Shown here piece after piece: positions 26,832-28,595 of a stretch of 64,000 nucleotides of DNA. The translations under genes and the position numbers were made by a program. The stretch is from Coraliomargarita sp. (lineage in GTDB: Bacteria; Verrucomicrobiota; Verrucomicrobiia; Opitutales; Coraliomargaritaceae): contig OZ244160.1 of assembly GCA_965216325.1 (NCBI GenBank), positions 1,792,001-1,856,000 on the forward strand, given 5' to 3'. Under the pieces are notes generated by a model. That model worked only from the letters and a program-made list of their open reading frames with translations. It was not told where the DNA came from and searched no databases. The stretch's first letter is position 1, and the number at the start of each line of letters is the position of its first letter.

Positions 26832-28595
26832 CTACTCCGCGGGCTTTTCTGCTTTTGTTGACGCTGTCTTCTTGGCCGCCTTTTTCTTGGCGGCTTTCTT
26901 CGCAGCCGTTTTCTTTTTCGCTGCCTTCTTAGTTGCGGTTTTCTTGGTCGCTTTCTTTGCGGCCTTTTTCGCTGCTGTTTTCTTTACCGGCTTTTCGTCT
27001 GGAACCAGCTCCAGTTGTTCGGCCTTAGGCTTGGCAGCTTTCTTGGTAGCAGTCTTTTTCTTGGCGGCCTTCTTTTTGGGGACTGAGCTTGCCTGCCTAG
27101 AGCTTGTCGAGGAGGTCGAAGTCTTGGCAGCTTTGGGCTTTGCTTCGGCTTTGGCGTCTTCAGTTGGCTTGCTGCTTGGCTTCGGTGCCTGGTCCTTCTT
27201 TGCTGCCTCTACTGGTGTTTCCGCAGAGCGTCGACGATTGCTGCGTGGCTTGTCGCCGGAAATAGGTGCTGCTGCTGAGTGCTCGCTCTGTGTCTCGCCT
27301 TCGTCGTTGCGTGGCTTGCGGTCACGGTTGCGGTTACGTCCGCCACGGCGACGCTTTGGCTTGTCGGAGGAGTCTGACTGGGCTTCGTCGGTTGCTTCAG
27401 ATGCCTGCTGAGTGCTCTCTTCAGCTTGTGGTTGTTCGCCGTCTGCTTGCTCGCTGCGGTTCTTGTTGCGGTTGCGACCACCACGACGACGCTTTGGCTT
27501 ATCACCGGATTTCTCAGAGGAGTCCTCCTGAGCTGGAGCTTCGGTGGCTTCGGCAGTCGTTTCAGCGTTCTCTTGTGAGTGTGGCTGTTCGCCGTCTGCT
27601 TGCTCGTCGCGGTTCTTATTGCGGTTGCGACCACCACGACGGCGACGACGCTTCTTTTTGCCGCCCTGCCCGTCTTCACCGGTTTGATCGGTGCCACGGA
27701 GCTCGGCTTTGAAGCGGTCGGGATCGGCTTCGTAGTCTTCGATTGCAGCTGCAATCTTCTCTTCCATTTCCTCGTCGGTATATGGAATGGTGCGCTCGAT
27801 GCTGTCGGGCTGCTTGGTTGGAATTGGTTCGCGCTCGGGTGGGAAGTATTCCTTCGGCGGGAGAATGACTTGGCTGTAAGGATCGAGTGGTTCCGGTGTG
27901 TCGGGTAGCTCAAAGGGTGCATCCGGGCTGAGCCGCGGATGTAGCACGATTTCGTTCGGAATGTTGGTCGCGTGAGGGTCGAGTAGGCGTTCGACGGTGT
28001 TGGCGACGTCCTCGGGATCGATGCGTGATTGAATGAGTTGCTCGTCGCTGGCGGTGCCGGAAGGCAGCTCGGTGTTCTGGCGCAGAATGAGGTTGGTGAC
28101 GCGTAGGCCGGCGTCGCGTGCTTGATCGAACAGTGCGTGGTTCATTTCACGCAGGCCGCCTTCAATGAGGGCATTGACCGCACTGGCTGGGCTGCCGCTC
28201 TTGTTGGACGGGATGATGTTGATCAGTTGCCCGCGGAAGCGCATCAAGTTTGGCAGCGCCAAGCGTGTGAGCATGACGGGGCCGAGCAGGCCAATCTTGA
28301 GGATCGCTTCGAGGTTGCCGACCGGCAGCTTGCGGAAGGGTGTGCCGGGTGTGACGTCGATCGCGTGGACCACGATGTGTAGGCGTTTTTCCTCGTCGAG
28401 GATCGCTTGAGTGGTGTCGCGAACGGCTTCGATGTTGGTCAGGTCGACGGCGTGGGCGACGAATTGCGGGTCGGCAAAGGTGACGTTGGCGAAGTTGTTG
28501 CCGATGCCGTGCACACGGCAACCTTGATCAATGAGGCGCTCAATAACGCGCAGGCCGAGGGGCGTTTCCGCTCCGGTAACGATGGCAATATCCAT
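26832..28595 (-). CDS. Degenerate SDR-fold domain fused to a long low-complexity tail (three RRRGGRNRN repeats plus KKAAKK repeats)
   Basis: AIVTGAETPLG, VDLT, GQLINI, LRVTNL, IDPEDVANTV, NEIVLHP, followed by about 330 aa of disordered acidic/basic sequence. Confidence 0.85.
   Translation of the reverse strand: MDIAIVTGAETPLGLRVIERLIDQGCRVHGIGNNFANVTFADPQFVAHAVDLTNIEAVRDTTQAILDEEKRLHIVVHAIDVTPGTPFRKLPVGNLEAILKIGLLGPVMLTRLALPNLMRFRGQLINIIPSNKSGSPASAVNALIEGGLREMNHALFDQARDAGLRVTNLILRQNTELPSGTASDEQLIQSRIDPEDVANTVERLLDPHATNIPNEIVLHPRLSPDAPFELPDTPEPLDPYSQVILPPKEYFPPEREPIPTKQPDSIERTIPYTDEEMEEKIAAAIEDYEADPDRFKAELRGTDQTGEDGQGGKKKRRRRRGGRNRNKNRDEQADGEQPHSQENAETTAEATEAPAQEDSSEKSGDKPKRRRGGRNRNKNRSEQADGEQPQAEESTQQASEATDEAQSDSSDKPKRRRGGRNRNRDRKPRNDEGETQSEHSAAAPISGDKPRSNRRRSAETPVEAAKKDQAPKPSSKPTEDAKAEAKPKAAKTSTSSTSSRQASSVPKKKAAKKKTATKKAAKPKAEQLELVPDEKPVKKTAAKKAAKKATKKTATKKAAKKKTAAKKAAKKKAAKKTASTKAEKPAE

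Follow-up and report, generated by a model that had tools for sequence, protein, structure and literature searches.

We analysed a window of 64,000 nucleotides from Coraliomargarita sp. (contig OZ244160.1, positions 1,792,001 to 1,856,000 of the forward strand; assembly GCA_965216325.1), a genome that consists of one contig of 3.06 Mb. The subject of this report is a minus-strand gene of the window whose family members are everywhere labelled 'SDR family oxidoreductase' in the databases, where SDR stands for short-chain dehydrogenase/reductase. As a functional label, this name is very probably wrong. The gene begins with the MDIAIVTGA start that is common to its orthologues. Its product joins a former SDR domain, apparently without catalytic function, to a conserved linker and a long disordered tail of alternating charge. 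The layout is as follows, in positions of the window.

26832..28595, minus strand: whole coding sequence, 587 amino acids plus stop codon (list of open reading frames, ORFs, and translation).
27921..28595, minus strand: residues 1-225, classical SDR domain judged catalytically dead (Pfam, AlphaFold2, VIA, motif alignment).
28554..28577, minus strand: residues 7-14, relic Gly-rich loop TGAETPLG (alignment to 3rkr).
28206..28217, minus strand: residues 127-130, IIPS, with P129 at the catalytic Ser position (alignment to 3rkr).
28161..28175, minus strand: residues 141-145, NALIE in place of YxxxK (alignment to 3rkr).
28119..28322, minus strand: helices αE (residues 92-119) and αF (residues 139-159), predicted homodimer interface (AlphaFold2 secondary structure; two-copy model).
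27687..27920, minus strand: residues 226-303, conserved linker, first Pro-rich and then acidic, containing two helices (274-290, 292-303) (AlphaFold2; dN/dS, the ratio of nonsynonymous to synonymous substitution rates).
26835..27686, minus strand: residues 304-587, disordered polyampholyte tail with an isoelectric point (pI) of 10.3 (pLDDT, the predicted local distance difference test; charge statistics).
27609..27659, minus strand: residues 313-329, Arg-rich block 1, KKKRRRRRGGRNRNKNR (conserved across the family-level clade).
27456..27500, minus strand: residues 366-380, Arg-rich block 2 (genus-specific copy).
27306..27362, minus strand: residues 412-430, Arg-rich block 3 (aligns with the weaker RPGRNRSR-like second block of other genera).
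27225..27251, minus strand: residues 449-457, KPRSNRRRS, a fourth short and weaker basic block (charge statistics, orthologue alignment).
27024..27077, minus strand: residues 507-524, first KKAAKK-type segment (repeat and charge analysis).
26853..26993, minus strand: residues 535-581, main histone-H1-like KKxAxKK repeat tail with a net charge of +22 (repeat analysis).

Performing profile and structure searches, we find that the N-terminal domain is a classical SDR by both fold and sequence homology. Pfam adh_short (PF00106) matched residues 3-128 (E 5.1e-12, 46.1 bits versus a cut-off of 26.6), and adh_short_C2 matched residues 46-212. A weak Epimerase match (PF01370, E 0.0085, 16.0 bits versus a cut-off of 20.9) covered residues 5-77 alone. 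The generic 'SDR family oxidoreductase' models of NCBIfam (PRK08219, PRK07326) remained far below threshold, at about 50 bits versus cut-offs above 200. An AlphaFold2 model of residues 1-310, built on a 96-row alignment, reached a mean pLDDT of 92.5 and a predicted template modelling score (pTM) of 0.76; the 10-residue blocks of residues 1-220 ranged from 92 to 98. The nearest solved structure was 3rkr_A, a metagenomic SDR with bound NADP (VIA-align Z 26.7, root-mean-square deviation 2.5 over 205 residues). Foldseek returned FabG-type and other classical SDRs at E values of about 1e-14 (best 1.4e-14). The ESM Atlas returned SDR clusters only, and the top one, a 432-amino-acid Verrucomicrobiota cluster, is probably the protein's own family.

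We assigned the motif positions by a residue-by-residue alignment to the NADP-bound 3rkr. The TGxxxGxG loop reads T7-G-A-E-T-P-L-G14, with Pro for the second Gly and an acidic residue in the loop, and NNAG has become H77-A-I-D80. All four members of the catalytic tetrad are replaced (Asn by G102, Ser by P129, Tyr by N141, Lys by E145). In the PG motif, L171 stands for Pro and the Gly falls in a gap. Position 130 of IIPS is S, A or T among the orthologues. The initial annotation had read TGAETPLG, IIPS and NALIE at the SDR hallmarks; these readings are correct, and the loss is wider than it claimed, taking in the tetrad Asn, NNAG and PG. Every catalytic feature that we examined (Gly-loop, tetrad, NNAG, PG) is altered or gone, and from its sequence we take the protein to be a non-catalytic SDR fold and not an oxidoreductase.

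Conservation was examined in a 40-row alignment of the query and 39 hand-picked full-length orthologues (42-91% identical), taken from 20 fetched loci and 120 listed relatives. T7, G8, A9 and G14 are invariant in it, and E10, T11 and P12 are conserved in at least 90%. The G32-N33-N34 stretch after strand 2, D51 and H77/A78/D80 are likewise invariant. In the wider family, the columns conserved in at least 90% are T7, G8, A9, G25, R111, G122, R160, G163, N174 and N211, together with hydrophobic and Pro positions; among these, no conserved polar residue lies near the old active site. This bears on the idea that the domain is still an enzyme that uses non-canonical residues, such as N131-K132 after strand 5. 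Both residues are invariant within the family-level clade, and the domain evolves very slowly. However, their columns vary in the wider tailed family (WNGQG, SNTPE and similar), and the old active site offers no family-wide polar candidate. We regard this explanation as highly improbable.

The same conserved positions could suggest an NmrA-type regulator that senses nucleotides or redox state, in which occupancy of the cleft by NAD(P)(H) or another nucleotide would alter the interaction of linker and tail and so tune DNA or RNA binding. NmrA-type proteins are SDR-like folds that lack the catalytic Tyr and bind dinucleotides. The invariant residues just listed (T7, G8, A9, G14, G32-N33-N34, D51 and H77/A78/D80) would fit such a sensor, as would the distant members of the family that retain TGxxxGxG and NNAK. 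However, the whole domain is highly conserved, so that the invariance of the cleft residues is not specific to ligand binding, and the five Pfam families listed at E ≤1 include neither NmrA nor another atypical-SDR family. Sensing of NAD(P), which the initial annotation had raised as a possibility, is little supported in this clade, because the clade has lost the tetrad (with the Tyr and Lys that hold the nicotinamide ribose), NNAG and PG, and its Gly-rich loop has Pro at the second Gly and Glu or Asp within it. We consider a sensor of this kind possible but unlikely.

How widely the loss of catalysis goes together with the tail was checked by an exhaustive search of 1.84 billion representatives, which returned 991 proteins at E ≤0.001. 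The best 150 were listed, and 131 of these have a complete domain. In 104 of the 131, the Tyr and Lys columns are both lost. A tail, defined as at least 60 residues past the domain, is present in 101 of these 104 but in only 1 of the 27 with an intact Y...K. Thus, the co-occurrence of YxxxK loss and tail, proposed as a check by the initial annotation, holds almost one to one among these representatives. The 27 intact SDRs are about 230-245 amino acids long; the sole extended one has 500 amino acids and carries its SDR domain at the C-terminus. Many distant tailed members retain TGxxxGxG and NNAK, which indicates that the decay of the cofactor loop came later and is specific to this clade. At 50% identity, the family falls into about 100 clusters.

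Closer relatives keep the same architecture. A word-index search found 280 relatives at E ≤0.001; the best 120 of them, which were listed, are 67-100% identical over residues 1-300 and have 324-618 amino acids. The named ones belong to Coraliomargarita, Lentimonas, Thalassobacterium and Puniceicoccaceae/Opitutales genomes. Counting the query and these best 120, at least three KKxxKK units occur in 119 of 121 proteins, and the two without a KK tail are the shortest (324 and 339 amino acids). The Arg-block pattern was matched in 105 of the 121. Within the genus, the domain shows a dN/dS of 0.008-0.033 and the tail one of 0.18-0.21, values that indicate strongly purifying selection. The orthologues therefore keep the tail and are not decaying, two points on which the initial annotation had staked its reading.

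Two other explanations were rejected. A decaying gene is ruled out by these dN/dS values, about 0.2 even in the tail, and by intact frames in the orthologues. A fusion artefact or frameshift is ruled out by a single open frame in 19 of the 20 fetched loci; in the remaining one, the script found no frame with the expected start.

The linker (residues 226-303) is Pro-rich and then acidic. Its pLDDT of 74-94 in the 96-row AlphaFold2 model implies a defined docking on the SDR domain, and we accordingly describe the linker as predicted to dock there. Its dN/dS of 0-0.037 shows a constraint equal to that of the domain. The motif PY[ST]D[ED]E.E is present in 119 of the 121 close relatives, and a second element, LPP...P.EPE.I.T, can be recognised in relatives as distant as order level (31-36% identity). 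None of the listed SDR matches from the Protein Data Bank aligned past model residue 231 with VIA.

The tail is predicted to be disordered. In the full-length model, 254 residues of 304-587, which is nearly all of them, had a pLDDT below 50; every 10-residue block averaged below 50, and no secondary structure was formed. The pI is 10.3 for the tail and 4.7 for the head with its linker. Three Arg/Asn-rich RRRGGRNRN blocks alternate with acidic spacers, and KKAAKK repeats occupy the tail end. These blocks, spacers and repeats had been described by the initial annotation, and they are real at the DNA level. A 49-nt unit is present in three copies at 27317, 27455 and 27608 (63-82% identity to the reference copy) and a 104-nt unit in two copies at 27388 and 27541 (81% identity). 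The KK-repeat DNA has 10 unit copies at 12-15 nt spacing, with one 90-nt gap, over 26848-27089 (residues 507-524 and 535-581). The alternating charge noted there is also borne out: blockiness lies 8.7 standard deviations above 200 shuffles of the same residues, which shows a patterning beyond composition alone. Pfam, run on the tail alone, found no family at E ≤0.01. The likeness to histone H1 is compositional, since the protein had no HC2 (PF07382) match at E ≤1.

Across the family, 97 tails of at least 100 residues have a median charged fraction of 0.38. Of the 97, 89 contain a 20-residue block with a charge of at least +8, and 78 contain a block of -6 or below. Blockiness exceeds the shuffles by more than 2 standard deviations in 63 of 89 tails. 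HC2 was matched in 8 of 96 scanned family members at E ≤0.001. Other Pfam domains, which could have served as Rosetta-stone clues, were absent from the tails, with SDR-type families and HC2 alone being found in the 96 scanned members.

Conservation within the tail is concentrated in block 1. In the 40-row alignment, R320 is invariant, and R316, R318, R319, G322, R323, R325 and N326 are conserved in at least 90%. The weaker, RPGRNRSR-like second block and the KK tail are conserved as well. The additional Arg-rich copy (block 2) and its acidic spacer are restricted to three same-genus sequences. As the alignment reads, it is in this genus that the Arg-rich block has expanded to three copies, and the conserved core consists of the near-invariant block 1 and the weaker second block. 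Block 1 is near-invariant despite the 42-91% overall identity, which suggests that it is a specific site for binding and not simply a source of bulk charge.

We also modelled the SDR oligomer that the initial annotation had assumed. A two-copy model gave an ipSAE interface score of 0.52 (runs 0.51, 0.52 and 0.53), and the best of its three controls 0.00. Among proteins of solved structure, 20 of 30 one-chain pairs and 1 of 23 single chains reach the mark used here. At least 93% of contacts are shared between the runs, with a partner pLDDT of 72 or higher. The interface, made up of residues 86-118 and 137-159, is the classical αE/αF bundle of SDRs and is highly conserved. A homodimer via αE/αF is thus predicted. 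Since this interface is the classical one, the good score may stem from resemblance to SDR oligomers of known structure, and the model speaks for a preserved interface rather than for pairing in the cell.

A conserved interface would also suit a non-catalytic subunit of a mixed SDR oligomer or other enzyme complex, in which the protein would pair with an active paralogue or recruit a partner, like SDR5C1 in human mitochondrial RNase P, and its tail would position the complex on RNA or DNA. The heterotetrameric SDR 7pcs (BbsCD) is among the structural matches, and tRNA-modification genes (MiaB/RimO-like, MnmE, MnmG) lie in the conserved gene block around the gene. There is a precedent too, as the available text of PMC3526285 describes an SDR partner of the mitochondrial tRNA methyltransferase that works without its dehydrogenase function. 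However, the homodimer model passes alone. The sole adjacent and co-oriented gene encodes a phosphatase of the haloacid dehalogenase (HAD) family, no partner gene is found there, and the flanking tRNA genes lie on other strands or several genes away. We think a mixed complex unlikely, and slightly more so than a sensor.

In a six-frame scan of the 12,297 ORFs of the genome, the triple Arg-rich pattern was unique to this gene, and KKxxKK runs occurred in six ORFs, this gene included. A pyruvate phosphate dikinase is the sixth; its run lies at the N-terminal edge, maybe upstream of the true start. The scan gave four others.

G000:C1:1196608-1198713: sigma-70 factor with a KK run at the N-terminus.
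G000:C1:999604-1000467: DksA-type zinc-finger protein with a KK run.
G000:C1:191518-192339: ribbon-helix-helix protein with a KK run.
G000:C1:1389632-1390075: 148-amino-acid H1-like protein with a KK run.

KK tails thus sit mostly on DNA- or transcription-linked proteins here, and it seems that the lineage uses them to tether its transcription proteins. Of the indirect arguments for a nucleoid link, this distribution is the best. The protein might instead organise polyphosphate granules or another polyanion, like AlgP of Pseudomonas, and not be a nucleic-acid protein. The genome encodes PPK1 and two PPK2, and Lys-rich H1-like tails are tied to polyphosphate granule spacing in the available text of PMC9239181. 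However, the near-invariant Arg/Asn block resembles a specific nucleic-acid or protein site more than bulk charge, the KK tails of this genome are mostly on transcription proteins, and no granule gene is nearby. We find this explanation improbable.

Taken together, these data somewhat favour a non-catalytic, dimerising SDR hub with multivalent polyanion-binding tails that acts on the nucleoid or on RNA. Binding of a polyanion, most likely nucleic acid, would be the most economical function, and we hold it to be somewhat more probable than the reverse. Nucleic-acid binding and condensate formation are suggested by composition, and the bridging and the cellular site of action we infer along with polyanion binding itself. 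The former classical SDR domain would serve as a folded, acidic hub (pI 4.7 with the linker), paired via a four-helix αE/αF interface and possibly forming higher oligomers. Each subunit would display about 285 disordered residues, made of Arg/Asn-rich blocks, acidic spacers and the Lys/Ala H1-like end. The KKAAKK end would most likely bind DNA, and the Arg-rich blocks RNA or DNA. As such a hub is at least bivalent, it could bridge or condense nucleic acid and so act as a nucleoid- or RNA-associated scaffold.

A switchable condensate scaffold is a more specific version of this idea. The acidic head and the docked acidic helices would hold block 1 in cis or in trans, until the block is set free, either by a metabolite bound in the old nucleotide cleft or by competition from RNA or DNA; a condensed phase would then arise as the dimers cross-link nucleic acid. 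We give this version a small chance. If true, compaction of the nucleoid or of RNA in Opitutales would depend on metabolic state through this protein, a role for which this fold is not known in bacteria.

Several observations weigh against a scaffold that acts on the nucleoid or RNA. The invariant Gly-loop, G32-N33-N34, D51 and H77/A78/D80 could mean that a small ligand is still bound and that the domain is more than a passive hub. The tail is net negative in 18 of the 97 family members, so basicity is universal only as blocks and not overall. The genome already encodes two HU/IHF-type proteins. The codon adaptation index of the gene, 0.61, stands at the 87th percentile of 2111 ORFs, which is moderately high and not decisive for expression. 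The gene neighbours (the HAD phosphatase upstream; Ogt, RecA, MnmE and MnmG) yield no functional or operon-level link. Finally, in the genome survey described below, the gene was not found in the small-genome genera g6 (0 of 6 genomes), g16 (0 of 3) and g17 (0 of 1), which belong to the same family and have genomes of 1.3-2.1 Mb, nor in the family f18 (0 of 35 genomes). These absences mark it as dispensable and not a core chromosome protein.

With this protein as the query, the survey took in 401 genomes from the phylum, all of them 90% complete or better. Besides the window's own genome, 30 of the 401 had long-frame matches (357-733 amino acids), all in the same family or the same order. Two matches in other orders (E about 5e-10) were frames of 232-245 amino acids, the size of ordinary SDRs. 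In the window's family, 14 of 25 genomes carry the gene. As judged with this query, the gene is order-restricted and dispensable.

One same-family genome of 1.7 Mb has an orthologue that is broken by TGA stops (G230:C4:136906-137594; two in one piece, one in the next), and it may be a pseudogene or an assembly error. Two contigs with clear orthologues (73% and 68% identity) are filed under metagenome-assembled genomes labelled Yoonia and Polaribacter; probably these are mis-binned Opitutales contigs.

The gene lies in a conserved block of MiaB/RimO-like, GGACT, SDR, HAD, Ogt, RecA, MnmE and MnmG genes, whose synteny is kept in the family and partly in an order-level relative. The HAD-family phosphatase gene (window 28854-29507) is directly upstream on the same strand, with weak matches to phosphoglycolate phosphatase and PpaX. 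It is likewise upstream in the same-family loci L021-L024 and L032, while L025 and L026 had no HAD match, and the gap between the HAD and SDR genes is 72-680 bp. The tRNA/rRNA modification genes that flank the block (window 16998-18278 and 31869-35152; MiaB/RimO-like radical-SAM, MnmE, MnmG) may be there by coincidence. A promoter scan found no promoter-like site, and terminator-like sites numbered 7 versus 5.9 expected, all on the plus strand and most inside repeats.

In relatives, the GGACT gene stands directly tail-to-tail with the SDR gene. Here, window 21262-26584 holds a pyruvate formate-lyase (757 amino acids), its activating radical-SAM enzyme and an HGSNAT-type acyltransferase, which have no counterpart in 12 related loci, and a GDSL hydrolase gene with a counterpart in 2 of the 12. 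By this comparison, the segment looks like an insertion specific to this genome.

Elsewhere in the genome, there are four DEAD-box helicases, three of them with basic C-terminal ends. The sole RNase E/G homologue (G000:C1:2346308-2348080) is a 591-amino-acid frame without a long C-terminal disordered scaffold region. We rejected the possibility that the SDR protein stands in for an absent HU or RNase E; the genome has a short RNase E/G as well as the two HU/IHF-type genes, and nothing is obviously missing.

The protein is a candidate lineage-specific organiser of the nucleoid or RNA in abundant polysaccharide-degrading marine bacteria; among the 401 sampled genomes, the family was found in a single order, of marine and soil Verrucomicrobiota. 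A whole family has exchanged catalysis for a long, charge-patterned disordered tail, with active-site loss and tail gain matching nearly one to one. It would offer a clean natural case in which to ask how the fold of an enzyme can turn into a hub that oligomerises and binds nucleic acid multivalently. Neither the pseudoenzymes nor the disordered scaffolds of bacteria are well charted, and our literature search found no paper on a dead SDR fused to Arg-rich or H1-like segments.

Comparing the protein with known systems, we find the same fold, Pfam matches above cut-off and the same predicted αE/αF interface as in classical SDRs (3rkr, FabG-type reductases, tropinone reductases). It differs from them in having only 13-23% identity, in the lost tetrad, NNAG and PG, in the altered Gly-loop and in a 360-residue C-terminal extension. 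Charge-block patterning has a role in RNase E condensates, and the alternating basic and acidic blocks of our tail, significantly segregated (z 8.7), resemble the scaffold regions of RNase E and the tails of DEAD-box helicases. Unlike these, the protein has no nuclease or helicase domain, and the RNase E/G of the genome is a separate gene.

In function, SDR5C1 and CSP41 come closest to our protein. SDR5C1, a component of human mitochondrial RNase P, is itself still an active enzyme without a disordered tail and has the dedicated partners TRMT10C and PRORP, of which no equivalents are known here. CSP41 has an SDR/epimerase-like fold, and we know of no Arg-rich or H1-like tail on it. A difference from CSP41 is that Pfam Epimerase stays below cut-off in our protein. 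SDR5C1 (HSD17B10, MRPP2) is described as a required partner of the mitochondrial tRNA m1R9 methyltransferase whose dehydrogenase function is dispensable, in the available text of PMC3526285; the likeness is that of a classical SDR serving as a structural partner in RNA biology. CSP41a and CSP41b, for their part, are described in the available texts as abundant RNA-binding chloroplast stem-loop proteins of cyanobacterial origin that form multimeric complexes (PMC3276088, PMC4047790).

The tail end has its closest parallels in H1-like Lys/Ala tails, which the available texts describe as DNA-binding or linked to polyphosphate (PMC2848022, PMC3643593, PMC3553676, PMC9239181). DdbA of Streptomyces, an H1-like/DksA fusion, is reported as a nucleoid-associated protein (PMC3643593). 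As far as these sources describe them, Chlamydia Hc2, Streptomyces DdbA, Mycobacterium Ku and Pseudomonas AlgP carry low-complexity KKAA-type repeats on a folded domain, as does our protein; here, however, the folded partner is an apparently dead SDR, a fusion that the available texts do not mention, and conserved Arg/Asn blocks and acidic spacers are added to the Lys/Ala repeats.

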